Positions 824 to 49,028 of a stretch of DNA of 64,000 bases are shown here, in pieces. Both the position numbers and the translations under genes were made by a program. The stretch covers positions 1,324 to 65,323 of the forward strand of contig JAUYAV010000019.1 of assembly GCA_030693325.1 (NCBI GenBank). The letters are read 5' to 3'. The notes beneath the pieces are model-generated. The model made no database searches, was not told where the DNA came from, and worked only from the letters and a program-made list of their open reading frames with translations. The DNA comes from a bacterium (GTDB lineage Bacteria; Patescibacteriota; Minisyncoccia; UBA6257; MFKM01). Each line of letters opens with the position of its first letter. Within the stretch, counting starts at the first letter, position 1.

Positions 824-2524
824 TTAAAAAACCAACGGCCCGGTCAATTTTTCCACCTCTTCAAAAGTGGTCAAGCCGGAAAGAACTTTAATAATGCCGT
901 CCTGCTGCATGTTCACCATATCTTGTTCTTTGGTCAATTTTTGAAGGTCTAAATCCGTGACTTTTTCTGAAATCGCTCTCATCACTTCCGGGGTCATCAA
1001 GAACAATTCAAAAATACCAAGCCGCCCCTGATAACCCAAACCACCGCACCACTGACAGCCCTCGGCTTCAAAAATTTTTCCGCCAGAGGCGGATCCGCCT
1101 TGGGCGGAGAAATTATCAAAACTGCTTTTATCCACCCTTGCCGGCAATTGGCTGATAAATTTTTTAATTTTCTTGGCCAATAAATCATCAATTTTTGCCT
1201 CTTTTCTGCAAACCGGACAAAGTTTTCTGACCAAACGCTGAGCGATAATCAGATTAATGGAAGGCGAAATCACCGAGGGCTGAACGCCCAAGTCAATCAA
1301 GCGGGGAATAGCGCCCACTGCTTCGTTGGTGTGAAGCGTGGAGAAAACCAAATGACCGGTCAAAGCCGCGTGCATGGCGATCTGGGCGGTTTCCAAGTCG
1401 CGAATTTCGCCGACTAAAATAACATCCGGGTCCTGCCGCAAAATTGAACGCAGACCGTTGGAAAAATCATAACCGGCTTTAGGGTTAACCTGCGTCTGTT
1501 CAATTCCTTCAATATGATATTCTATCGGGTCTTCAATGGTAATAATTTTTATTTCCGGCTGATAAATTTTTTTGAGGAAAGCATAAAGAGTGGTAGTTTT
1601 ACCCGAGCCGGTCGGGCCGGTATTGAGAATCATTCCATTGGGACGCTTTAATTCTTTTCCGATAATTTCCAAATCGTCTTTTCGCAAACCCAGTTTTGCA
1701 AAATCAACTTTTATAATAGCGGGGTCTAAAATCCTCAAAACAATGGTTTCGCCGAACTCCGAGGGAATAATTGAAGTCCTGATTTCAATATCCACATTTT
1801 CCAAACCGATGGTGAAACGGCCGTCCTGCGGCTGGTCATGAATATTTAATTTCATTTTTGAAAGAAGTTTTATCCGGGAAACCAGCGCCAAATAAACAGA
1901 GGAAGATAAATCATATAAATCATAAAGCAAACCGTCTATCCGCAGCCGCAGTTTGGCGTTGGCCCGGGCCGGTTCAAAATGAATATCCGAAGCCCGGCTG
2001 ACGAAAGCGCCGGCTAAAATAATTTCCAAAATCTGGGAAATCTGCGGCTCTTTGAATTCCTGAAGCTGAATTTTAAATTTTTCAAGGTCGCTTATTTTTT
2101 TTGTTAATTCCTTTATTCTGTCGGAGGCAATTTCCACCTTGCCGGTGATTTCTTTAGCATCCGGAGTGACAAATTGATAAAAAGTCCAGGCGTAATTCAA
2201 ACTTTCCTGGGAAACAATAAATATTTCCGGTTCATAGCCGTCAATTTTTAATTTGGCAATTATTTTTTTGGCTTCGGAAGTATTCGGGTCAAAAACCGCC
2301 AAACTTAATTGTTTTTTCTTTAAAAGAAACGCGGCCAATTTGGCTTCCTCCGCTTCTTTGTTGTTTATCAAACGCAGGGCTTTGGTCTGAACCGGCACGG
2401 TCGCCAAACTGATATAAGAATAATTTAATTTAGTCGCCCGGCGCTGGGCTTCCCGCTCCTGGGCTTCGTGGCGCTCTTTGGCCAATATTTCCCCTAAATT
2501 AGAATTTTTTTGTTCCCCGATCAT
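824..2524 (-). CDS. pilB: Type IV pilus assembly / type II secretion ATPase (PilB/GspE family)
   Basis: 566 aa; Walker A GPTGSGKTTTLYA; N-terminal GspII-like region; C-terminal CPVC...CQWC tetracysteine zinc motif typical of GspE/PilB. Confidence 0.85.
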   Translation of the reverse strand: MIGEQKNSNLGEILAKERHEAQEREAQRRATKLNYSYISLATVPVQTKALRLINNKEAEEAKLAAFLLKKKQLSLAVFDPNTSEAKKIIAKLKIDGYEPEIFIVSQESLNYAWTFYQFVTPDAKEITGKVEIASDRIKELTKKISDLEKFKIQLQEFKEPQISQILEIILAGAFVSRASDIHFEPARANAKLRLRIDGLLYDLYDLSSSVYLALVSRIKLLSKMKLNIHDQPQDGRFTIGLENVDIEIRTSIIPSEFGETIVLRILDPAIIKVDFAKLGLRKDDLEIIGKELKRPNGMILNTGPTGSGKTTTLYAFLKKIYQPEIKIITIEDPIEYHIEGIEQTQVNPKAGYDFSNGLRSILRQDPDVILVGEIRDLETAQIAMHAALTGHLVFSTLHTNEAVGAIPRLIDLGVQPSVISPSINLIIAQRLVRKLCPVCRKEAKIDDLLAKKIKKFISQLPARVDKSSFDNFSAQGGSASGGKIFEAEGCQWCGGLGYQGRLGIFELFLMTPEVMRAISEKVTDLDLQKLTKEQDMVNMQQDGIIKVLSGLTTFEEVEKLTGPLVF

Positions 2525-2699
2525 TTTAATTATTATACTCCGACTCTTAATTAAATAAAAAGGGCAGAATTAACCTTGTTTTCTCGCCAATATATCTTAT
2601 TTCGCCCTTAATATTGACAAACTTCTAAAAATATGTATTATTATAGATAGGCTCTATATTAAGTTCATTTACATAAACCAATAAAAACGGAGGTGGAAA

Positions 2700-2954
2700 A
2701 TGAAAAAAACAGGTTTAATCCTTAGTTTCGTGTTTTTCGTATTAACGCTAAGCGGCTGCGCGATAACAATGGGGCGGCCTCAAAGTCCTTTAATAATAGA
2801 TTTCAAACAACCCGAGATAACGTTTTGGGGAAATCCTAATCCTTACCCTTACTGGTATGGATATTACCCAAATACTTATGTCGTGCAAAAAACATTAATT
2901 TACAGAAACTATGGAAACTATCGTCCCCGCCACTATCCGCGCCACAGGAGATGA
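2700..2954 (+). CDS. Small lipoprotein, Tyr/Pro-rich (hypothetical)
   Basis: Signal peptide with lipobox LTLSGC; NPNPYPYWYGYYP low-complexity core; followed by a hairpin terminator. Confidence 0.55.
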   Translation: MKKTGLILSFVFFVLTLSGCAITMGRPQSPLIIDFKQPEITFWGNPNPYPYWYGYYPNTYVVQKTLIYRNYGNYRPRHYPRHRR

Positions 2955-2976
2955 CATCTCCGACAAAATCAATTTA

Positions 2977-3010
2977 CCCCGACTCAATTTAACGAGTCGG
3001 GGTTTTTATT
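2977..3010 (+). terminator. Rho-independent terminator
   Basis: ccccgactc-aatttaac-gagtcgggg followed by tttttatttt. Confidence 0.7.
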
Positions 3011-3058
3011 TTGAATAGATATTTTTGCGCTTTCGCTTAAAATTTATATAATTATGGC

Positions 3059-3583
3059 ATGTCAGGACATTCTCACTCTAAAACCATAAAACACGAAAAA
3101 AATGCCACCGACCAAAACCGCGGCCGGTTGTTCTCAAAATTGCTTAATGCGGTGGCAATTGCCGCCCGAGAAGAACCCAATCCCCAATTCAATCCCCGGT
3201 TGCGGACCACTATTGAAAAAGCCCGCCAAAACAATGTTCCCCAGGAAAATATTGAACGGGCGGTCAAACGCGCTTCGGAAGATAAAACTCTGGAAGAATT
3301 GATTATCGGCGCCTATGGCCCGGAAGGAGTCGCGGTTTTAGTTGAGGCCATCACTGATAATAAAAACCGCACCATCCCTGAAATAAAAAAAATCCTCAGC
3401 GACCATGATGCTAAGTTTACCGAGCCGGAAAGCGTTCTTTGGGCTTTTGAAAACAAAGACGGTCAATGGCAAGCCAAATTCAAACAACCGGTTTCCGAGG
3501 AAAGTAAAAACAAAATAAACGAACTTATTGAGACGCTGGAAGAGCAAGATGATGTTCAAAAAATAATAACGAATAGTAATTGA
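3059..3583 (+). CDS. yebC: YebC/PmpR-family DNA-binding regulatory protein (short form)
   Basis: N-terminus MSGHSHSKTIKHEKNATDQNRGRLFSKL matches the YebC signature MAGHSKWANIKHRK...RGKIFTKL. Only 174 aa, shorter than the canonical ~240. Sits immediately upstream of ruvC as in many bacteria. Confidence 0.75.
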   Translation: MSGHSHSKTIKHEKNATDQNRGRLFSKLLNAVAIAAREEPNPQFNPRLRTTIEKARQNNVPQENIERAVKRASEDKTLEELIIGAYGPEGVAVLVEAITDNKNRTIPEIKKILSDHDAKFTEPESVLWAFENKDGQWQAKFKQPVSEESKNKINELIETLEEQDDVQKIITNSN

Positions 3584-3627
3584 GTAATTGGGTAATTACT
3601 GTAATTACGGTAATTACTTAATTACTA
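3577..3627. repeat. GTAATTAC palindromic 9-mer array (yebC/ruvC spacer)
   Basis: tagtaattgagtaattgggtaattactgtaattacggtaattacttaattact. Confidence 0.7.
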
Positions 3628-3636
3628 AAATTTTCT

Positions 3637-4137
3637 ATGAAAATTTTAGGTATTGACCCCGGCAGTACTCGCATCGGTTACGGCTTAATTGATAAAAAGG
3701 GAAGTGATTTAAAATTTCTTAAAGCCGGCCTTTTAAAAATTTCATCTACAAACAAAAACCAGCGATTACTGGACTTGGAAAATTCATTTACTCAACTGCT
3801 TAAAAAAGAAAAACCTGACTTAGTCGCCTTGGAAAAACTTTATTTTGCCAAAAATCTAAAGACCGCCCTGGAAGTCAGCCAGTCGCGGGGAGTTTTGATT
3901 TTGATAATTTTAAAAAATAAACTGCCGCTGATTGAAATCTCTCCTTCCGAAGCCAAGCTGATAGTCGCCGGCGACGGCCGGGCCTCAAAAGAAGCCGTCG
4001 CTAAAATGGTTGGCCATTGTTTAAAAATTAATACCGCCAAACAAATTGATGATATTACCGACGCGCTCGCTTTAGCGATCGCCGCCGTCAATATTTACCG
4101 CAATTCCCTGCGGGGGTTGACCCCGTTAGAAGTCTAA
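3637..4137 (+). CDS. ruvC: Holliday junction resolvase RuvC
   Basis: MKILGIDPGSTRIGYGLID... RuvC N-terminal catalytic-Asp motif; 166 aa. The last codons and the stop lie inside a repeat element. Confidence 0.85.
   Translation: MKILGIDPGSTRIGYGLIDKKGSDLKFLKAGLLKISSTNKNQRLLDLENSFTQLLKKEKPDLVALEKLYFAKNLKTALEVSQSRGVLILIILKNKLPLIEISPSEAKLIVAGDGRASKEAVAKMVGHCLKINTAKQIDDITDALALAIAAVNIYRNSLRGLTPLEV
4112..4136. repeat. Inverted-repeat element arm GGGGGTTGACCCCGTTAGAAGTCTA
   Basis: Identical 25-mer at 38042..38066; partners at 4219..4236 and 4290..4311 in opposite orientation. Confidence 0.8.
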
Positions 4138-4289
4138 CTTAATCTGATGTAGCATAAAATAAATATTTAGATATAATTTAAGATTAATCCTAATAAATGC
4201 CAAGTATAAAAATTTAATAAACCCCGTTAGAAAGAGTAAGAATTTAAGTCTATCCGTCCTTTCCGAAAACAGAGCTATAAACTGAAAAA

Positions 4290-4331
4290 CTTTCTAACGG
4301 GGGTTGACAGGCGCTAGTTTATTAATATAAT
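4290..4331 (+). promoter_or_regulatory. Repeat arm CTTTCTAACGGGGGTTGACAGG carrying a sigma70-like promoter (TTGACA-16-TATAAT)
   Basis: TTGACA at 4304..4309, 16-nt spacer, TATAAT at 4326..4331, about 38 nt upstream of the ATG at 4370. Confidence 0.6.
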
Positions 4332-4369: not shown

Positions 4370-4489
4370 ATGGCCGAAGATATTTGCCCGGAATGCGGCA
4401 ACACATTAGCAAACAACTCCTGCCCTGTTTGCGGCTTTGAAAAAGAAACAGAGAAAGAAGAGCCAGTAGAAACCCAGGAGGCAGAATAA
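4370..4489 (+). CDS. Small zinc-ribbon protein (39 aa, CxxC...CxxC)
   Basis: MAEDICPECGNTLANNSCPVCGFEKETEKEEPVETQEAE. Not in the ORF track because it is short. Preceded by a consensus promoter and followed by a hairpin. Confidence 0.5.
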   Translation: MAEDICPECGNTLANNSCPVCGFEKETEKEEPVETQEAE

Positions 4490-5746: not shown

Positions 5747-8212
5747 ATGAAGCCAAAAAAGAAAAAAATTATAAAAATATTCGGTTTGACAACGCTGGTT
5801 GTTTTAGTTTTAGCGGCAACCGGTTTAATATACCTGTCTTCGCTGATAAAAAATTTACCAGTTTTAGACCAAATCAGCGACTACCAACTGGCCCAGTCAA
5901 CTCAAATTTACGACCGGACAGGCAAAGTCCTGCTCTACGAAATCCACGGTCAGGAGAAAAGGACGGTCATTCCTTTTGAAGAAATCCCTGATTATGTCAA
6001 AAAAGCGACTATCGCTATTGAAGACCACGGTTTTTACAACCATCCTGCTTTTGACCTTAAAGCCATTGTCCGGGCCCTTTTTAATAATTTAATTCATGGC
6101 CAATCCAAGGGCGCATCCACTATTACCCAGCAATTAGCCAAAAATGCTTTCCTTTCGCCGGAAAAAACAATTCAAAGAAAAATAAAAGAACTCGCCTTGG
6201 CCATTGAGTTGGAGCGTTATTACGCCAAAGACGAAATTTTAACTTTTTATCTTAACCAAATCCCTTACGGCTCAAATATTTACGGCATTGAAGCCGCCGC
6301 CCAGGCCTATTTCGGCAAACCAGCCAAAGAACTTGACTTAGCCGAAGCCGCCGTTTTGGCCGCCGCGATCCAGGCGCCCAGTTATTATTCTCCCTGGGGT
6401 TCTCGTTTGGACGAACTTAAAAAACGCCAAGAACTTGTTTTGGACGAAATGTTAAAACAGGGTTTTATTGATGCCGGGCAAAAAGAACAAGCCATAAAAA
6501 CCAAACTGGTTTTCGCCTCTCCGTCTCTTAGCGGCATTAAAGCCCCGCATTTTGTTATGGAAGTGAAAGAATATCTGGTCAACCGCTACGGAGAAGAAAT
6601 GGTCCAAAAAGGCGGTTTAAAAGTTATCACGACACTTAATTACGAACTGCAGAAATCAGCGGAAACAGCGGTGACTGAAGGCGCCCAACGCAATGATACT
6701 CTCTATAAGGGAAAGAACGCCGCCTTGGTGGCTCAAGACGCTAAAACAGGCCAAATTTTAGCGCTGGTTGGCTCTCGCAACTATTATGATATTGAGAACG
6801 AGGGCAACTTTAATGTCGCTACCCAGGGCCTGCGCCAGCCCGGTTCCGCGCTCAAGCCCTTCGTTTATCTGACCGCTTTTGAAAGGGGGTATACTCCGGA
6901 CACGATATTATTTGATGTGCCTACTGAATTTACCGCCAACAATCCACTCTGTCCCGCGATAGTTGATTTCAACAATGAGAATCCGGTTTGTTTTCATCCT
7001 CGTAATTTCGATAAACAATTCCGTGGTCCGGTTGATTTAAAAAATGCCCTAGCTCAATCAATCAACATACCTGCGGTCAAGATGCTTTACCTGTCCGGTT
7101 TGGATAATGTTGTAAAAACTCTTCACAATTTCGGCATCACCACCTTGACCGATCCCCGGCGTTACGGCTTATCGCTGGTTTTAGGCGGCGGCGAAGTCAA
7201 GCTTATAGATTTAGTTGAGGCCTATTCCGTTTTAAGCCAGGAAGGGATCAAACATCCCCAGACCATAATTTTGGAAGTTAAAGACAGTAATGGAAAAATT
7301 CTGGAAGAATATCAAGACCGAAGTACAAAAATCGTTGATCCGCTTTATCCGCAATTAATAAACAATATTCTTTCCGACAAGGATTTGCGCCAGCCGCTTT
7401 TTTCTTCCAGTTTGAATCTCACGGTTTTCCCAGACCAGGAAGTCGCCTTGAAAACGGGAACCAGCAACAACTTCCACGATGCCTGGGCTTTGGGCTACAC
7501 CCCCTCTTTTGTGGTCGGGGTTTGGGCCGGAAATAATAATAATGCCCCGATGCAACAGCAAGCCGGCAGTATTCTGGCTGCCGTTCCTATCTGGCACGCT
7601 TTTATGGAAGAGATTTTAAAAAATGCGACCACTACCGAAACCTTCACCCGGCCGTATTCGATTTCAGCCGAAAAACCCATTCTCCGCGGCGAAGCCGTTA
7701 TTAACTATCAAGTCAATGGCGTGGAATATCCTCAAATTCATGACATTCTTTATTATATAGACAAAAACAACCCCCAAGGGCCAATCCCTCAAAACCCCCA
7801 AGACGATCCGCAATTTCAAAACTGGGAAGAAGAATTAATGGAATGGTTGAAACAGAATCTTCCGGATTTCAGCCGTTATAATCAAACGCCGCCGGGGTTA
7901 ACCCAGAATTCCAATACCGGACAAAATTCCAAACTGGAAATTGCCGCCTTTTCGCCTAATAATGGGGATTTCGTGAAAGACGCGATAAATATTAAGGCCA
8001 CAATAAAATCAGATGTTAATCTGGATAAAATTGAACTCTATTTTAATAATCAATTAATTGACCGCAAAAGTCCGGGGTCTCTTGGAGTATATGAATACCA
8101 ATACCAAATTGCCAATCAAAAATTTGATCTCCAAAATTCTCTTAAAATAAAAGTCAGTGATGTTTACGGAAATTCCGCCGAAAAAGAAGTAATAGTTTTT
8201 CAATTACTGTAA
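5747..8212 (+). CDS. Class A penicillin-binding protein (glycosyltransferase + transpeptidase) with C-terminal Ig-like extension
   Basis: Start moved to the in-frame ATG at 5747 (MKPKKKKIIKIFGLTTLVVL... TM anchor); the upstream part of the track ORF overlaps divergent tyrS. GT51 motifs (EDHGFYNH, QQLAKN); transpeptidase motif SALKP (Ser-x-x-Lys). Confidence 0.85.
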   Translation: MKPKKKKIIKIFGLTTLVVLVLAATGLIYLSSLIKNLPVLDQISDYQLAQSTQIYDRTGKVLLYEIHGQEKRTVIPFEEIPDYVKKATIAIEDHGFYNHPAFDLKAIVRALFNNLIHGQSKGASTITQQLAKNAFLSPEKTIQRKIKELALAIELERYYAKDEILTFYLNQIPYGSNIYGIEAAAQAYFGKPAKELDLAEAAVLAAAIQAPSYYSPWGSRLDELKKRQELVLDEMLKQGFIDAGQKEQAIKTKLVFASPSLSGIKAPHFVMEVKEYLVNRYGEEMVQKGGLKVITTLNYELQKSAETAVTEGAQRNDTLYKGKNAALVAQDAKTGQILALVGSRNYYDIENEGNFNVATQGLRQPGSALKPFVYLTAFERGYTPDTILFDVPTEFTANNPLCPAIVDFNNENPVCFHPRNFDKQFRGPVDLKNALAQSINIPAVKMLYLSGLDNVVKTLHNFGITTLTDPRRYGLSLVLGGGEVKLIDLVEAYSVLSQEGIKHPQTIILEVKDSNGKILEEYQDRSTKIVDPLYPQLINNILSDKDLRQPLFSSSLNLTVFPDQEVALKTGTSNNFHDAWALGYTPSFVVGVWAGNNNNAPMQQQAGSILAAVPIWHAFMEEILKNATTTETFTRPYSISAEKPILRGEAVINYQVNGVEYPQIHDILYYIDKNNPQGPIPQNPQDDPQFQNWEEELMEWLKQNLPDFSRYNQTPPGLTQNSNTGQNSKLEIAAFSPNNGDFVKDAINIKATIKSDVNLDKIELYFNNQLIDRKSPGSLGVYEYQYQIANQKFDLQNSLKIKVSDVYGNSAEKEVIVFQLL

Positions 8213-11875: not shown

Positions 11876-12290
11876 GTTGATGGGAGCGGAGGATTTTGAA
11901 ATCAATTTTAATGAACCGTCTAAAAGATTTTCAATCACCACCAATGACCAGTTAATCGCTGAGAATTTGCAGGGTTTTCTGGAGGATTTTGAATATATGA
12001 TTAATCTGATCTCCCAGAAAGAAAACCAGCAAAAAGTGTGGCTGGATGTGAATAATTACCGCCGGGAGCGTGAACGATTAATCGCTGAATTAGCCAAAGC
12101 CGCCGCCCACAAAGCGATTATTAATAAGGAAGAAATTCAATTGCCGCCGATGAACGCTTATGAGCGCCGGCTGGTCCATTTAGAGATTGTCAATCATCCC
12201 GATTTAAAAACCGAGAGTGTCGGTGAGGGAAAAGAGAGGCACGTAATAATTAAACCGATAGAATTACAGCAATTACAGCAATTACAGTAA
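11838..12290 (+). CDS. jag: Jag/KhpB-like KH+R3H RNA-binding protein
   Basis: yidC-jag synteny; R3H-like C-terminal motif (YERRLVHLEIVNHPDLKTESVGEG). Start could instead be the in-frame ATG at 11880. Confidence 0.7.
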   Translation: MEQLSEKIKKLLELMGAEDFEINFNEPSKRFSITTNDQLIAENLQGFLEDFEYMINLISQKENQQKVWLDVNNYRRERERLIAELAKAAAHKAIINKEEIQLPPMNAYERRLVHLEIVNHPDLKTESVGEGKERHVIIKPIELQQLQQLQ

Positions 12291-12315
12291 TTACGGTAAT
12301 TGCTGTAATTACTCA
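12262..12315. repeat. GTAATTAC palindromic 9-mer array (jag end / convergent gene)
   Basis: gaattacagcaattacagcaattacagtaattacggtaattgctgtaattact; also encodes a QQL repeat at the jag C-terminus. Confidence 0.8.
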
Positions 12316-13421
12316 ACTTCCAAAGAATATAATTGATTATCGTAGCGATTGATGAAAAGAATTTGATCGCCGAGAATTTTTAAATCAGAGGCATCGATTA
12401 TTTTCCCTTCGGTAGGGGCGAAAATCAGTTCCGGGGCGACTAAGTTATTTAAGTTAAATTTATAAAGCGCGTCTATAGTGTAAATTGATTTTTGAAGATA
12501 ATCATCCGGCCAGTTTATTTTGGGATTAGCTGAGGTGAAAAGAAAGCAATAAAGAGAATCTGATTTTAAAACGCATTTATCCGGCAGAACCATTATTGAA
12601 AAATTATTTATTGTTTGCCCGGTCCAATTTATTAAACTGCTTTTTTGGTTTTGGAATTTCAGGCCCGAATCTTCTTTCAGCCATTTAATCATCAAACCGG
12701 TTCCCGGCGGGACAATTTCGGTAAAAGTTGTCTTAGTCGGCTTGGCAAAATTAAGACGCCAAGCCGAACCCATTACTGAATTAGACGGTTTGCCGGTAAA
12801 AATTATCTCATCCGGTATCAGCCAATTCATTTTTAAATCTTGAAGAGAAAAGTTTTTGACAATTGTTGTTGAGGACTTCGCTTTTTGCTTGGGATCGCTT
12901 GATAAATACTTGGCCAAATCAAGAATAATTAAATCGGTCTGGTTATTTTGGTTTATGATAGCGGCTAATCTTTTTCCTTCAGGCGACCAGGCCACAGATT
13001 TAATCTCCAAAGGCAGAGGCGACCAGGTACTGCTCGCTAAATCAAAAATACTGAATTGCGGTTGGCGAGAATCGCCGAAAGCGGCAATGACTTTTTGGCT
13101 GTCAGGCGACGGCAAGGCGAAATTGAGATTAGTAATTGTTTGTTCCGAGAGATAAGTATTTTGAGGAGCGCCGATTTTGGCGATTTTCCCTTCAGGAGTA
13201 ATATAAAAAATTTCTTGGCTCGTGGAGGCCGTCCAATAGTCAAAAACCGGTTCCTGGGAAACAATTTTTAGTTGGCTTGCCGCTTGTTGCGCGCTTGTTG
13301 ATTCTGTTTCCGGTTTAGCGGTGATAATCGGTGAAGCTGCTCGGCTTATAAAATAGTAAATAACCCAGCCAAGCGCTAGAACTCCGACTACCCCTATGAT
13401 GATTGCTAAAATTTTGCGCAT
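12309..13421 (-). CDS. Membrane-anchored protein with TolB-like beta-propeller repeats (hypothetical)
   Basis: N-terminal TM helix; WSPEGKRLAAII-type propeller repeat; last gene of the minus-strand block that follows the T4SS-like genes. Confidence 0.45.
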   Translation of the reverse strand: MRKILAIIIGVVGVLALGWVIYYFISRAASPIITAKPETESTSAQQAASQLKIVSQEPVFDYWTASTSQEIFYITPEGKIAKIGAPQNTYLSEQTITNLNFALPSPDSQKVIAAFGDSRQPQFSIFDLASSTWSPLPLEIKSVAWSPEGKRLAAIINQNNQTDLIILDLAKYLSSDPKQKAKSSTTIVKNFSLQDLKMNWLIPDEIIFTGKPSNSVMGSAWRLNFAKPTKTTFTEIVPPGTGLMIKWLKEDSGLKFQNQKSSLINWTGQTINNFSIMVLPDKCVLKSDSLYCFLFTSANPKINWPDDYLQKSIYTIDALYKFNLNNLVAPELIFAPTEGKIIDASDLKILGDQILFINRYDNQLYSLEVE

Positions 13422-25562: not shown

Positions 25563-27080
25563 TTAAGAGATTATTTTTAAAACGCAATTATTAAATTGTT
25601 CGCCGCGGTCAAATTCGTTTTGAAAAAGATTGAAACTAGCCGCTCCCGGAGAAAGTAAAATTATATCCCCTGTTTGGGAAGTTTGGTAGGCTTTTTTAAC
25701 CGCTTCCTCCATGTTTTTGGCTTCGGAAAAATTTACCCCGTTAGAAGTTTTAGACAGAAAAAATTTCTTAAAAATTTTTTCTGTTCCTGAACGTTGAATT
25801 GAATTCCTATTTTGGATAAAACTCGGTAAGTTGTTGTTCGATTTAATGTTCGCCAGACTTCTAACGGGGTTTATCTTCAAATATTTTTTCAGTTTTTCCG
25901 TGGCGCTGCCTGGCAAAAGAATTAATTTTTTGACTTGGCGATTGATTTTTTCCGCCAAATTTTTATAATCAAGATTTTTATTCTCGCCTCCGGCAATCAA
26001 AATAATCGGCCGCTGATATTTTTTAGCCAAAAACTCAAGGCCTGTCAAAACCGCCGTGGGGTTAGTGGCGGTTGTGTCATTGATAAAAATTATATTTTTT
26101 AATGTTCTGATTATTTCCTGGCGTCCGGCCAACCCGCGAAAATTTTTGACCACTTTGGTAATTTCTTTTTTCGGCACCCCCAAAATTTTTGCCGCCTCGG
26201 CCGCCAAAGCGATATTAATTTCCAAGGGCAATAAATTTTTATTTTTAATAAAGTGTTTTTTAGCTTTAGCCCCGTTTAGCGGGACTTTGGCATTTTTTAT
26301 CAGTTTAACCAAAAATTTATCATTGCCGTTGATAATCAAATGGTCTTTCGGTTTTTGGTATAAAAATATGTTGGTTTTAGCTTTGGCATAATTTTTTAGC
26401 GAGGCATAACGGTTAAGATGATCGGGGAAAATATTGGTAATGATGGCAATTGGCGGACTCTTTTCTATCAAAGCCAAGTCTTCCAGTTGAAAACTGGAAA
26501 GCTCGGCTACCACGGCATCTTCAGGTTTGATTTTCGAAAGTTTTCCCAAAAATGATTCCCGGATATTTCCTAAAAGCCAAACTTTGGGGTATTTTTTCTT
26601 TAAAATCTCCGCCAAAAGAGCGGCGGTGGTTGATTTTCCCTTGGTTCCGGTGATGCCGACAATTAAAGCCGGTGCATGGCTGAAAAAAATAATAGTATCG
26701 GTGGTAATCGGTATGCCCTTGGCCCGGGCTTTTTCCAAAAAGGGGTCATCCCAGGGGATAGCCGGGTTTTTGACAATTAGATCGCTGGTTAAGAAGTTAA
26801 CCAAGCGGTGTTTGCCGAGTACATATTTAATATTGGGGAAACGAGCAAGCTCATTTAGTGAAGCAGAAAGGGCTTCTTTGGTTTTTAAGTCGGTTACTGT
26901 CACTTTAGCCCCCTGACGGCTGAAAAACTTGGCGATACCTATCCCGCCGCCGTTTAAACCCAGGCCGAAAATAAGGACTTTTTGAGGGCTACCTGCTCTG
27001 TTTACCGGACAGACAGGCGATAGGCGGGGAATATTGTCTTTCTGTTTAGTTTTGCTATAATAAAAGTTATTGGTACTCAT
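25563..27080 (-). CDS. murD: UDP-N-acetylmuramoylalanine--D-glutamate ligase MurD
   Basis: Mur ligase P-loop GITGTKGKSTTAALL; N-terminal Rossmann GLGLNGGG. The N-terminal ~35 aa may be over-called. Confidence 0.8.
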   Translation of the reverse strand: MSTNNFYYSKTKQKDNIPRLSPVCPVNRAGSPQKVLIFGLGLNGGGIGIAKFFSRQGAKVTVTDLKTKEALSASLNELARFPNIKYVLGKHRLVNFLTSDLIVKNPAIPWDDPFLEKARAKGIPITTDTIIFFSHAPALIVGITGTKGKSTTAALLAEILKKKYPKVWLLGNIRESFLGKLSKIKPEDAVVAELSSFQLEDLALIEKSPPIAIITNIFPDHLNRYASLKNYAKAKTNIFLYQKPKDHLIINGNDKFLVKLIKNAKVPLNGAKAKKHFIKNKNLLPLEINIALAAEAAKILGVPKKEITKVVKNFRGLAGRQEIIRTLKNIIFINDTTATNPTAVLTGLEFLAKKYQRPIILIAGGENKNLDYKNLAEKINRQVKKLILLPGSATEKLKKYLKINPVRSLANIKSNNNLPSFIQNRNSIQRSGTEKIFKKFFLSKTSNGVNFSEAKNMEEAVKKAYQTSQTGDIILLSPGAASFNLFQNEFDRGEQFNNCVLKIIS

Positions 27081-36109: not shown

Positions 36110-36152
36110 AAATTACAGCAATTACTGTAATTACAGTAATTACGGAAATTAA
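36110..36152. repeat. GTAATTAC palindromic 9-mer array (nusA/clpP spacer)
   Basis: aaattacagcaattactgtaattacagtaattacggaaattaat, ending just before the clpP ATG. Confidence 0.8.
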
Positions 36153-37999: not shown

Positions 38000-38041
38000 A
38001 GTAGTTGATTATACCAATTCCGGATTTTTCTGAAAAGGCGC

Positions 38042-38066
38042 GGGGGTTGACCCCGTTAGAAGTCTA
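38042..38066. repeat. Inverted-repeat element arm GGGGGTTGACCCCGTTAGAAGTCTA (identical to 4112..4136)
   Basis: Exact 25-mer repeat; the partner arm GACTTCTAACGGGGTTGACA at 38169..38188 gives a 14-bp inverted repeat flanking ~100 bp. Confidence 0.8.
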
Positions 38067-38168
38067 TCAAATTCTGAGTTCAGTAATAATTAGCTGAGTC
38101 TTGCCTGAAATGGAAATTTAATTCATTATTCAGGAATAGAAAAAATTTATTAAATTTTTTCTGTCCAA

Positions 38169-38215
38169 GACTTCTAACGGGGTTGACAAAAATTTTATTT
38201 TTACTATACTATAAA
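38169..38215 (+). promoter_or_regulatory. Repeat arm with TTGACA -35 and downstream TATACT -10-like box
   Basis: gacttctaacggggTTGACAaaaattttatttttacTATACTat. Confidence 0.45.
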
Positions 38216-38271: not shown

Positions 38272-38508
38272 ATGAAAAAGCCGAACCTTAATTTAAATGA
38301 GAGTGAAATTCATCAAATACTGGGAGGTGAAAAAATAGAAGAAATTTGCAACCGTCATTTACTTGCAGGCAATGAGAAAAAAACGATTAATCTTTTTTTT
38401 CAGGAAATCAGATTAAATAATTTAGAAAGGGCGAAGAGGGTCATTGCGGACATTTCTGATTTAATCAGTTTTCCGAAAAAAGAGAAAACCAAAATTAGCT
38501 GTTCTTAA
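38272..38508 (+). CDS. Small protein with double-glycine-type leader (candidate bacteriocin/pheromone precursor)
   Basis: Strong RBS aaaggagaaaagATG. N-terminus MKKPNLNLNESEIHQILGG matches the LSxxELxxIxGG leader consensus. Hairpin terminator follows. Confidence 0.5.
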   Translation: MKKPNLNLNESEIHQILGGEKIEEICNRHLLAGNEKKTINLFFQEIRLNNLERAKRVIADISDLISFPKKEKTKISCS

Positions 38509-38572: not shown

Positions 38573-38580
38573 AATAAAAT

Positions 38581-38665
38581 GAACCCCGTTAGAAATTCCA
38601 GAGATTTAATTTCAGGAAATTTTAATTTTCAAGATTAGCCCATTTGTGATTTCTAACGGGGTGAA
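38581..38665. repeat. Third inverted pair of CCCCGTTAGAA / TTCTAACGGGG arms flanking ~50 bp
   Basis: gaaccccgttagaaattcc ... gatttctaacggggtgaa. Confidence 0.7.
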
Positions 38666-38702: not shown

Positions 38703-38775
38703 GGGCGCTTAGCTCAGCTGGTAGAGCGTCGCATTTACACTGCGAAGGCCTGAGGTTCGAACCCTCAAGCGCCCA
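38703..38775 (+). tRNA. tRNA-Val (TAC)
   Basis: gggcgct...agcgccca; D-loop agctggta; anticodon stem tcgca/tgcga with loop ttTACac; T-loop ttcgaac. Confidence 0.85.
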
Positions 38776-38979
38776 CTAATTCCGAAATAAAAATCAACTC
38801 CTTTTAATAGGTGAAATATTTAGGTTAAGATCTGGCGTCTTTTTCTGTTTGGATTTAGTTTACTGGGAAATTACGATTTTTCCTTAAATAAACCCTATTT
38901 TAAAAACAACTTTAAAATCTGATAGAAAGCTTAGGTTTTATCCACTTACTGAGGAATGTAGATAAAACCTACGTTTTTA

Positions 38980-39165
38980 AAATGTTTCACATAAAAGTGT
39001 GAAACATTGGTTTTTTACAAATTTTCGCAGACAGGTCAGTAATGCGATGAAATCTACGCTTTTGGGATTTTGGGCAAAAAATGAAAAAGTGAGTGTTTGC
39101 GCAGAAACATTATTTTTTGGAAAAAGCTTCAAAAATACAAAAAAGCGATGTTTCTGCGCAAACAT
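38980..39165. repeat. Cluster of three related palindromes AATGTTTC...GAAACATT / TGTTTGCGCAGAAACA
   Basis: aatgtttcacataaaagtgtgaaacatt (38982..39009); gtttgcgcagaaacat (39092..39107) and its reverse complement atgtttctgcgcaaac (39147..39162) within a larger hairpin. Confidence 0.6.
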
Positions 39166-39199: not shown

Positions 39200-39682
39200 T
39201 TAGGGAAACAAATGAATATTTTTATCAAAAATTCCCCATTTATAAAGCCGGTATAATGATTTATACCTATCAGAAACATCCGGGTCGCTTCCGATTTTCT
39301 CTAACCAATCAATAAATTGTATGGCCTTATATCCCTTTAATTTTTTATAGAAAAAGGGGATTATAATATCTTTCAACTGCTCAAAATCTCTTACTACCAA
39401 CGCCGCCATTCTTCCTCTTTTATAGCCATCGCCAGTCCATGCTTTATGATTATAAATTGGATTTTTTAAATCTAAAGAATCTCTCACCATTTTTAACAAA
39501 TTTTCGTCTCGCTCATGCATTCCTATATAAAAAGTAGGCATTTTACACTTTCTACCGTTCTTTTGGCGCCATCCAGTATGGAAACTAAAACAGCCTTCGC
39601 CAGTAACTAAGCCCCTGATATAATCATTGGTTAAAGTTTTTTTGTTCAGGATGGTTTGTTTGTTGACGAACACTTCGCTCAT
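39200..39682 (-). CDS. Free-standing LAGLIDADG-type homing-endonuclease-like protein (single-motif, 160 aa)
   Basis: IRGLVTGEGCFSF matches the LAGLIDADG_3 motif (lAGfiDGEGsF); second conserved block IGMHERDENLLKMVRDSL; size fits homodimeric single-motif enzymes. Confidence 0.55.
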   Translation of the reverse strand: MSEVFVNKQTILNKKTLTNDYIRGLVTGEGCFSFHTGWRQKNGRKCKMPTFYIGMHERDENLLKMVRDSLDLKNPIYNHKAWTGDGYKRGRMAALVVRDFEQLKDIIIPFFYKKLKGYKAIQFIDWLEKIGSDPDVSDRYKSLYRLYKWGIFDKNIHLFP

Positions 39683-48984: not shown

Positions 48985-49028
48985 AAATTACAGTAATTAC
49001 TGTAATTACGTAATTACAGTAATTGTTG
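48985..49028. repeat. GTAATTAC palindromic 9-mer array
   Basis: aaattacagtaattactgtaattacgtaattacagtaattg. Confidence 0.8.

Follow-up and report, generated by a model that had tools for sequence, protein, structure and literature searches.

The 64,000-nt stretch of DNA analysed here (hereafter the window; contig JAUYAV010000019.1, positions 1,324 to 65,323) comes from a metagenome-assembled genome of the Patescibacteria, the candidate phyla radiation (CPR), and contains four short repeat elements, E1 to E4, one of which (E1) is composite. E1 overlaps the 3' end of ruvC, E2 lies within murD, and E3 and E4 are intergenic (Table 1). Each has the inverted repeat CCCCGTTAGAA(R)(Y) at its ends and a 4-bp direct repeat on either side. 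With lengths of 78-182 bp, a 13-nt repeat, no open reading frame (ORF) of their own and 4-5 copies per 64 kb, these repeats are genuine miniature transposable elements inserted in and beside essential genes.

The arms of the elements are far too frequent in the window to be accidental. The 11-nt core CCCCGTTAGAA occurs nine times without mismatch, where 1.4 occurrences would be expected even with one mismatch permitted, and none of 100 shuffled windows reached nine; copies with exactly one mismatch are absent from the window. The 25-mer GGGGGTTGACCCCGTTAGAAGTCTA, which the earlier note had reported as identical at 4112 and 38042, is indeed present in exactly two copies, with none expected. The inverted pairing of the arms was likewise confirmed, including that of the third, smaller pair now delimited as E4, the earlier coordinates being off by a few bases at most: the pairs are 4121(+)/4302(-), with an additional internal left arm at 4222, 25736/25869, 38051/38182 and 38584/38661. 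Perfect complementarity of the arms extends over 16 nt in E3 (38050/38168) and over 13 nt in E4 (38584/38661) and in the inner part of E1 (E1b, 4222/4302), while the match of the outer E1 pair (4121/4302) is limited to 11-12 nt. The predicted folds of the elements are strong (z = -4 to -6.7).

Table 1. Coordinates of the elements, their junctions and the associated host features. Positions are those of the window, except for the two full-length units, which are numbered within their own loci (L092 and L048).
Feature	Position	Strand	Description
ruvC	3637-4137		ORF ending RGLTPLEV, then stop
E1	4121..4302		182 bp, composite; arms 4121(+), 4222(+), 4302(-)
E1 left part	4121-4221		101 bp, homologous to the subfamily of about 130 bp, with which E1 clusters
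E1b	4222-4302		complete 81-bp element; arms match 13/13
E1 left target-site duplication	4117..4120		TTGA, within RuvC codons GGG TTG A
E1 right junction	4303..4309	+	extra G, duplicated TTGA (4304-4307), host CA, giving the -35 hexamer TTGACA
Element-derived ruvC end	4121..4137	+	most of the last five codons (TPLEV) plus the TAA stop
Promoter TTGACA-16-TATAAT	4304-4331	+	12/12 consensus match; for the 39-aa zinc-ribbon ORF 4370-4489
E2	25736..25869		134 bp, inside murD (25563-27080, minus strand)
E2 target-site duplication	25732..25735 and 25870-25873		TTTA, left and right
E3	38051..38182		132 bp, intergenic, between two divergent promoters
E3 duplication	38047-38050 and 38183-38186		TTGA
Host promoter at E3	38183-38210		TTGACA-16-TATACT
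E4	38584..38661		78 bp, between the terminator of ORF 38272-38508 and tRNA-Val (38703-38776)
E4 duplication	38580-38583 and 38662-38665		TGAA
L092 full-length unit	6221-6502		282 bp, duplication TGAA
L048 full-length unit	6919-7199		281 bp, variant repeat in both arms

E1 illustrates how such an insertion can reshape a gene end. Its outer arms diverge beyond nt 11, unlike those of E1b, and tandem or nested copies of this kind are also present in other genomes. As the earlier note had read it, the left arm supplies the last residues and the stop codon of RuvC. Comparison with relatives showed quite different tails: past the sequence DALALAIAA, RuvC is hypervariable and differs in almost every relative, and excision of E1 would, as read from the sequence, leave a protein ending in RGLTGASLLI and a stop codon. 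In the relatives L127 and L128 the site is uninterrupted, with a single TTGACA and no element, and the end of ruvC overlaps the TTGACA-16-TATAAT promoter of the zinc-ribbon gene. Because these element-free relatives carry the same promoter, it is host DNA; the right arm had been credited with providing it, but TTGA is the duplicated target and CA belongs to the host. E1 thus landed in an existing promoter and did not bring one, and at the same time it cut ruvC short at its 3' end and provided a new tail with a stop codon. The proposal that the element had been exapted for gene ends and promoters therefore holds in the weak sense of a replaced RuvC tail and fails for the promoter.

Several further sequences surround this site. 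In L122, a relative with 96% identity, a different inverted-repeat element of 126 bp (3486-3611; arms ACCCCCGCACCAATTAAGTTT / AAACTCAATTGGCGTGGGGGT) occupies the very TTGA used by E1 and likewise provides the last residues and stop codon of RuvC. The sequence GCGGGGGTTGA to the left of E1 was considered as a part of the element and rejected, since relatives show GGGGGTTGACA as host ruvC/promoter sequence. GCGGGGGTTGA is also found to the left of E3, where it may be left over from an older element next to it; the stretch immediately left of E3 (38030-38046) contains a degenerate sequence resembling an arm, CCCCCGCGCCTTTTCAG.

E2, which the earlier note overlooked together with the link to the nuclease-bearing elements described below, is an in-frame insertion in an essential gene. 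Together with its duplication it amounts to 138 bp, or 46 codons, in frame and free of stops (INPVRS...TSNGV), and exactly these 46 residues are missing from all 14 of the closest MurD homologues. A DNA-level empty murD site, AAAATAAATTTTTC, is present in the relative L219, with a single TAAA where the window has TAAA-E2-TAAA. Since relatives show DNA-level empty sites both here and at the ruvC 3' end, E1 and E2 are true insertions. E2 sits in a variable loop of MurD, and the insert is presumably translated; copies of 32 bp at this codon and of 65-66 bp at another position are found in other murD alleles. Over its whole length E2 is 73% identical to E3, which has perfect terminal inverted repeats of 16 nt, a subterminal hairpin (AGAAAAAATTT/AAATTTTTTCT) and the strongest fold (z = -6.7). 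The 4-bp duplication is exact at E2, E3 and E4, and E1 has one extra G.

The same repeats recur far beyond this genome, in hundreds of copies, which supports the earlier proposal of a small non-autonomous mobile element. Scanning a collection of 185,579 genomes, one for each species, for pairs of cores with a spacing of 53-113 nt, which by design leaves out the full-length units described below, gave at least 120 matching stretches, against a chance expectation of about 4 (our own estimate, from the size of the collection and the 22 specified bases). Altogether more than 130 ORF-less copies of 29-185 bp were found in more than 100 species-level genomes, mostly of Patescibacteria and also of Desulfobacterota, Planctomycetota, Omnitrophota, Nitrospirota, KSB1 and others, some of them on contigs of 0.1-1.2 Mb, with JAUYKD01 and JAJYUJ01 as examples of copy-rich assemblies; the GC content of the elements tends to track that of the host. 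Among the 134 copies from other genomes that entered the duplication statistics, 83 have a perfect 4-bp target-site duplication, which chance would give in 1 of 256 per copy, and 15 more have one with a single mismatch. The target consensus is T-N-N-A (T 90%, A 90%). The terminal inverted repeat comprises 13-15 bp, CCCCGTTAGAA(A/G)(C/T); its 11-nt core is perfectly conserved while the interiors diverge, and positions 12-13 vary among copies yet agree between both arms of one copy. A 2-bp duplication, with the repeat starting A...T, was considered and rejected because duplications such as TATG, CATA, CAAG and CTGG occur.

About 12 of these copies lie in long open frames, and the reading frame is kept in 10 of the 12. 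Outside long ORFs, the duplication overlaps an ORF start in 23 of 51 ORF-less copies, compared with 8.8% of control T..A sites (p = 1e-11), and where the duplication is TTGA, the copy lies in a -35 box of the host, TTGAC(A), whose -10 partner is spaced 16-17 nt from it. A subfamily of about 130 bp, to which E2 and E3 belong, is spread over many CPR genomes and maintains a subterminal AT-rich hairpin through compensatory changes. All-against-all clustering of the ORFs around 120 loci revealed no recurrent neighbour gene, and a search of the window and three full-length loci at the Rfam gathering threshold returned tRNAs only. Short and with inverted-repeat ends, devoid of coding capacity, dispersed, and associated with a duplication of fixed length and with empty sites, the repeats in the window are ORF-less, non-autonomous copies of one transposable-element family, that is, miniature inverted-repeat transposable elements (MITEs). 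In about 12 copies of the scan (e.g. L045, L022, L002, L005, L078, L085, L100) the flanks are inverted, as in TTCA...TGAA or TTTA...TAAA, an arrangement that recombination between copies, or insertion by another route, would be expected to produce.

Longer members of the family carry a gene. Two longer copies, met by chance, are each filled by an ORF for a GIY-YIG nuclease (L092 and L048, Table 1), and as an independent test we assembled a set of 80 metagenome loci picked via protein similarity to the 86-93-aa nuclease alone, blind to the repeats. At every one of the 80 loci at least one repeat arm is where it was expected, and at 73 both arms are present. The complete units measure 281-285 bp, and in 73 of 73 the nuclease gene (86-93 aa) is the sole gene and fills the unit, with its start and stop built into the repeats; no recognised transposase class (DDE, DEDD, HUH, serine, tyrosine, Cas1) is encoded between the ends. 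Perfect 4-bp duplications flank 51 of the 73, and the preferred tetramers are the same as for the ORF-less copies. The units occupy about 63 distinct flank contexts; units 88-95% identical to one another lie in unrelated flanks and can have different duplications, which shows that the duplication derives from the target. Of the 956 relatives returned by the protein search, terminal motifs were read in the best 120, about 80 of which start with (M)NPVR[SN] or TPLE, while most end in [DG]F and a stop codon; these ends correspond to the left repeat in translation and to TTC-TAA in the right one. Repeat variants co-vary with the nuclease lineage, as in L048.

The nuclease itself matches Pfam PF01541 (E = 2e-17), and in sequence and fold it is matched best by UPF0213 proteins (BH0048) and by the nuclease domain of SLX1, with I-TevI and UvrC ranking lower. 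Its catalytic-type residues are invariant, third codon positions account for 56% of the differences, and an intact frame is kept in 24 of 26 ORFs, a pattern that indicates a functional gene under purifying selection. Searches by tblastn gave no match among plasmids and a single weak match among phages, to an uncultured phage, and the PADLOC and PHROGs libraries yielded weak, generic GIY-YIG matches only. KRIL and LKFFF, the two peptide motifs that vary least in the nuclease, have coding sequences that are reverse complements of each other (AAAAGAATTTTAA / TTAAAATTCTTTT; about nt 88-102 and 246-260 of the full-length units L139-L218), with compensatory double changes in L194 and L162; their pairing forms an internal long-range stem besides the terminal repeats.

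Full-length units and ORF-less copies have identical ends, duplication length and target preference, and they occur together: the 206 kb of sequence around full-length units include 18 ORF-less copies, and in L092 a 131-bp ORF-less copy is found 470 bp from the unit. In some loci ORF-less copies abut full-length units or each other and share the 4-bp repeat (L144, 1371-1787; L189, L190, L196 and L216, about 1350-1780; L141/L142, about 2480-3120), which suggests that insertion preferentially targets the junctions of copies already in place. One full-length unit (L129-L138) is placed in the ATGA overlap of a gene pair encoding 65 and 94 aa, beside HicAB and ParE toxin-antitoxin genes, and turns up in no fewer than 25 contigs, which come from several groundwater samples.

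The junctions of the full-length units have a distinctive architecture. Of the 63 contexts, 31 have the unit placed exactly at a start codon of the host (A|TGAA). On the left side the host ATG, often overlapping the TGA of the upstream gene, is followed by the target AA and then by the left repeat, read N-P-V-R. At the other end, the nuclease ORF stops at a TAA within the right repeat, 8 nt from the right end, and the terminal G together with the duplicated TGAA recreates a GTG start 4 nt past the nuclease stop, which opens a host ORF of 89-499 codons. The orientation is strictly biased, with 26 cases of TGAA and none of TTCA. In four loci (L143, L148, L164, L177) both terminal bases are changed (TCCC...GGGA) in a manner coordinated between the arms, and the right junction gives ATG, not GTG. 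This arrangement suggests that the nuclease would be expressed from host signals and that the host gene would be re-initiated by translational coupling after the nuclease stop.

Elements of this general kind are familiar from other bacteria. The Correia elements of Neisseria and the RUP and BOX elements of Streptococcus are also short, ORF-less and present in many copies, with inverted-repeat ends and duplications, and they too are often located near gene ends and able to alter gene termini. Correia elements duplicate TA. The present family differs in its 4-bp TNNA duplication, its occurrence in several phyla and its nearly invariant 13-nt end, and further in that its sole ORF-bearing relatives encode a GIY-YIG nuclease and no known transposase and that the promoter seen here is host-derived. 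In surviving as translated in-frame inserts of essential genes, as the MurD copy suggests, the elements resemble the Rickettsia palindromic elements, a likeness of behaviour only, as the sequence family and host range appear to be unrelated and the elements described here have inverted-repeat ends with duplications and an ORF-bearing relative.

The full-length units invite comparison with the free-standing GIY-YIG homing genes (Seg of phage T4) and with I-TevI, which are likewise selfish genes with a GIY-YIG nuclease as sole product; they border host genes or lie between them and rely on the host's signals for expression, as we infer for the units. Homing genes, however, are not known to have inverted-repeat ends or duplications, and each has one cognate site at which it homes in a recombination-dependent manner, whereas the units occupy 63 or more different sites and have both inverted-repeat ends and 4-bp duplications; moreover, the nuclease is without an added DNA-binding domain, and its fold is closer to UPF0213/SLX1 than to I-TevI. 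UPF0213 proteins (BH0048, EF2693, YhbQ-like) and SLX1 are described as cellular repair proteins or proteins of unknown function, not as cargo of a repeat-bounded mobile unit. SLX1 cuts branched DNA, an activity in keeping with ends that can fold into a hairpin or cruciform. A review of transposable-element classification lists GIY-YIG in two roles only, as a type of homing endonuclease and as the endonuclease that Penelope-like retroelements carry (PMC5718144). In rRNA genes of CPR bacteria, stray GIY-YIG ORFs and short insertions that are not introns have been reported (PMC11270868), and these may be the same elements. Our literature search found no description of the motif, of MITEs in CPR/Patescibacteria or of a repeat-bounded GIY-YIG element, the motif being met in primer coincidences only. 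The family, with its units of about 282 bases in many uncultivated bacteria, is thus apparently undescribed, and the absence of its nuclease from plasmid records and near-absence from phages may explain why it has gone unnoticed.

Taken together, the observations are probably best explained by a single family in which the 281-285-bp GIY-YIG units would supply the nuclease that mobilises the MITEs of the window. We regard as evenly balanced the stronger statement that these units constitute a new class of autonomous prokaryotic transposon, mobilised by a sole SLX1/UPF0213-like nuclease of about 90 aa, with the window repeats as derivatives; the chances are similarly divided that the units are built for insertion at a start codon of the host, whose ribosome-binding site and ATG they would use before returning translation to the host through TAA-N4-GTG. 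Under the mechanism that we favour, the nuclease would mobilise the full-length units and, in trans, the ORF-less copies; its substrate may be a hairpin or cruciform folded from the repeats, and it would make 4-nt staggered cuts at TNNA, with host enzymes carrying out the joining and fill-in. Nuclease cuts followed by host joining are favoured because the repeats can form such structures and SLX1-type enzymes cut branched DNA.

A number of points weigh against this interpretation. GIY-YIG enzymes are hydrolytic nucleases that are not known to carry out strand transfer or DNA joining, and familiar examples leave 3' overhangs of 1-2 nt, not 4-nt staggers, so that the joining step is unaccounted for. 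The 64-kb window contains no GIY-YIG homologue. With the repeats masked, ORF-less copies and full-length units share no significant similarity, and an nhmmer profile of the full-length units gave one marginal match to the ORF-less interiors; a match to an internal inverted repeat of the ORF is only suggestive of an origin of the ORF-less copies by deletion between that repeat. About 40% of copies are without a perfect duplication, and some have inverted rather than direct flanks. The start-codon preference could reflect sequence preference, selection or both. Finally, the data are metagenome assemblies throughout, and the work is sequence analysis only.

A live rival view takes the copies for ordinary MITEs that depend for movement on a conventional DDE transposase with its gene elsewhere, for instance one like that of IS1380 or piggyBac, and the GIY-YIG gene of the 282-bp units for a passenger, or a selfish or stabilising gene, between the same ends. 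Duplication through a staggered cut is a hallmark of DDE chemistry, and DNA joining is not known for GIY-YIG nucleases. The 4-bp duplications and CC(CC) ends fit IS1380, which has duplications of 4-5 bp and ends in CC, and there is a passing resemblance to piggyBac (CCCTAGAAAG), which duplicates TTAA and has the repeat CCCTAGAAAGATA where the present family has CCCCGTTAGAAAGAG. Those elements, however, are 1.5-2 kb long, as against units of 282 bp, the target here is TNNA and not TTAA, and no DDE transposase was present in the fetched loci. When we looked in the 120 + 80 loci for repeat pairs 0.25-8 kb apart with duplications, none enclosed a transposase, the few matches holding glycolysis or pilin genes; nor did any gene family recur beside the copies at the 120 loci. 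Since, in addition, all 73 complete units hold the nuclease gene alone with its start and stop built into the repeats, and the repeat variants follow the nuclease lineage, we consider a separate DDE transposase unlikely.

Two further explanations dispense with transposition of this type. The invariant core amid diverging interiors, the strong predicted folds and the compensatory changes that preserve the subterminal hairpin of the 130-bp class could all be reconciled with a host cis-element, either a structured RNA, as in a hairpin sRNA or processing site, or a paired operator bound by a protein. This reading is contradicted by the target-site duplications and by the empty sites at DNA level, the copies occur in frame within coding genes and at unrelated loci across phyla, and no Rfam family was matched; we consequently judge it highly improbable. 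Even more doubtful is an origin as repetitive extragenic palindromes (REP/REPIN type) or IS200/IS605-derived palindromes moved by a tyrosine (HUH) transposase, or as integron attC sites. The palindromic architecture is shared, GTTAGAA/TTCTAAC resembles the attC core sites GTTRRRY/RYYYAAC, and locus L137 has a Y1 transposase gene at a distance of about 1 kb. The REP, IS200/IS605 and attC systems, though, are not known to make duplications, whereas 4-bp duplications dominate here; the core-like motifs (GTTAGAA ... TTCTAAC) are in the reverse of the attC order; and the copies are dispersed, with no integrase or RAYT recurring nearby. On motif order and the presence of duplications, the attC and REP readings were rejected.

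Other repeats were noted in the window and its relatives. Long AT-rich intergenic palindromes made of short repeat runs of the GTAATTAC / AATTACAGC type are located at 3575-3630, 12261-12320, 36111-36150 and 48995-49024; they form a separate repeat family, one run of which lies directly upstream of ruvC. A GC-rich palindrome, AATTTTTCCGCCAGAGGCGGATCCGCCTTGGGCGGAGAAATT, lies in frame at 1073-1114, where it encodes SAQGGSASGGKIF within an ORF for a type II secretion ATPase-like protein (824-2524, minus strand). The MurD homologue P0015 has an insert, SAKGGSASGGK, similar to SAQGGSASGGKIF, and the two may represent a second family of in-frame palindromic elements. Variable inserts in the MurD N-terminus (about 26979-27023), such as CLPAGRP and PVCPVNRAGSP, resemble translated GC-rich palindromes like GCCTGCCTGCCGGCAGGTAGGCCTGCCTGCCGACAGGCAGG, which is itself found in the 5' leader of the zinc-ribbon gene of L127 (2030-2080). 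A 160-aa ORF on the minus strand (39200-39682), near inverted repeats at 39094-39164, contains a LAGLIDADG-like-looking motif, LVTGEGCFSF, and may be the remnant of a homing endonuclease.

Should the nuclease move the units, it would add a sixth or seventh chemistry to the known transposase types, and the lower size limit of a self-sufficient mobile element would be set at about 280 bp, making these the smallest autonomous mobile elements known. For the annotation of metagenomes, the family accounts for many spurious or odd protein ends (NPVR, TPLE, SNGV, LTG). Whatever the mechanism, it is a widespread and apparently unnoticed shaper of the streamlined genomes of uncultivated bacteria, one that rewrites protein termini, as in RuvC, adds peptide loops to essential enzymes, as in MurD, and splits overlapping gene pairs while keeping their stop and start codons.

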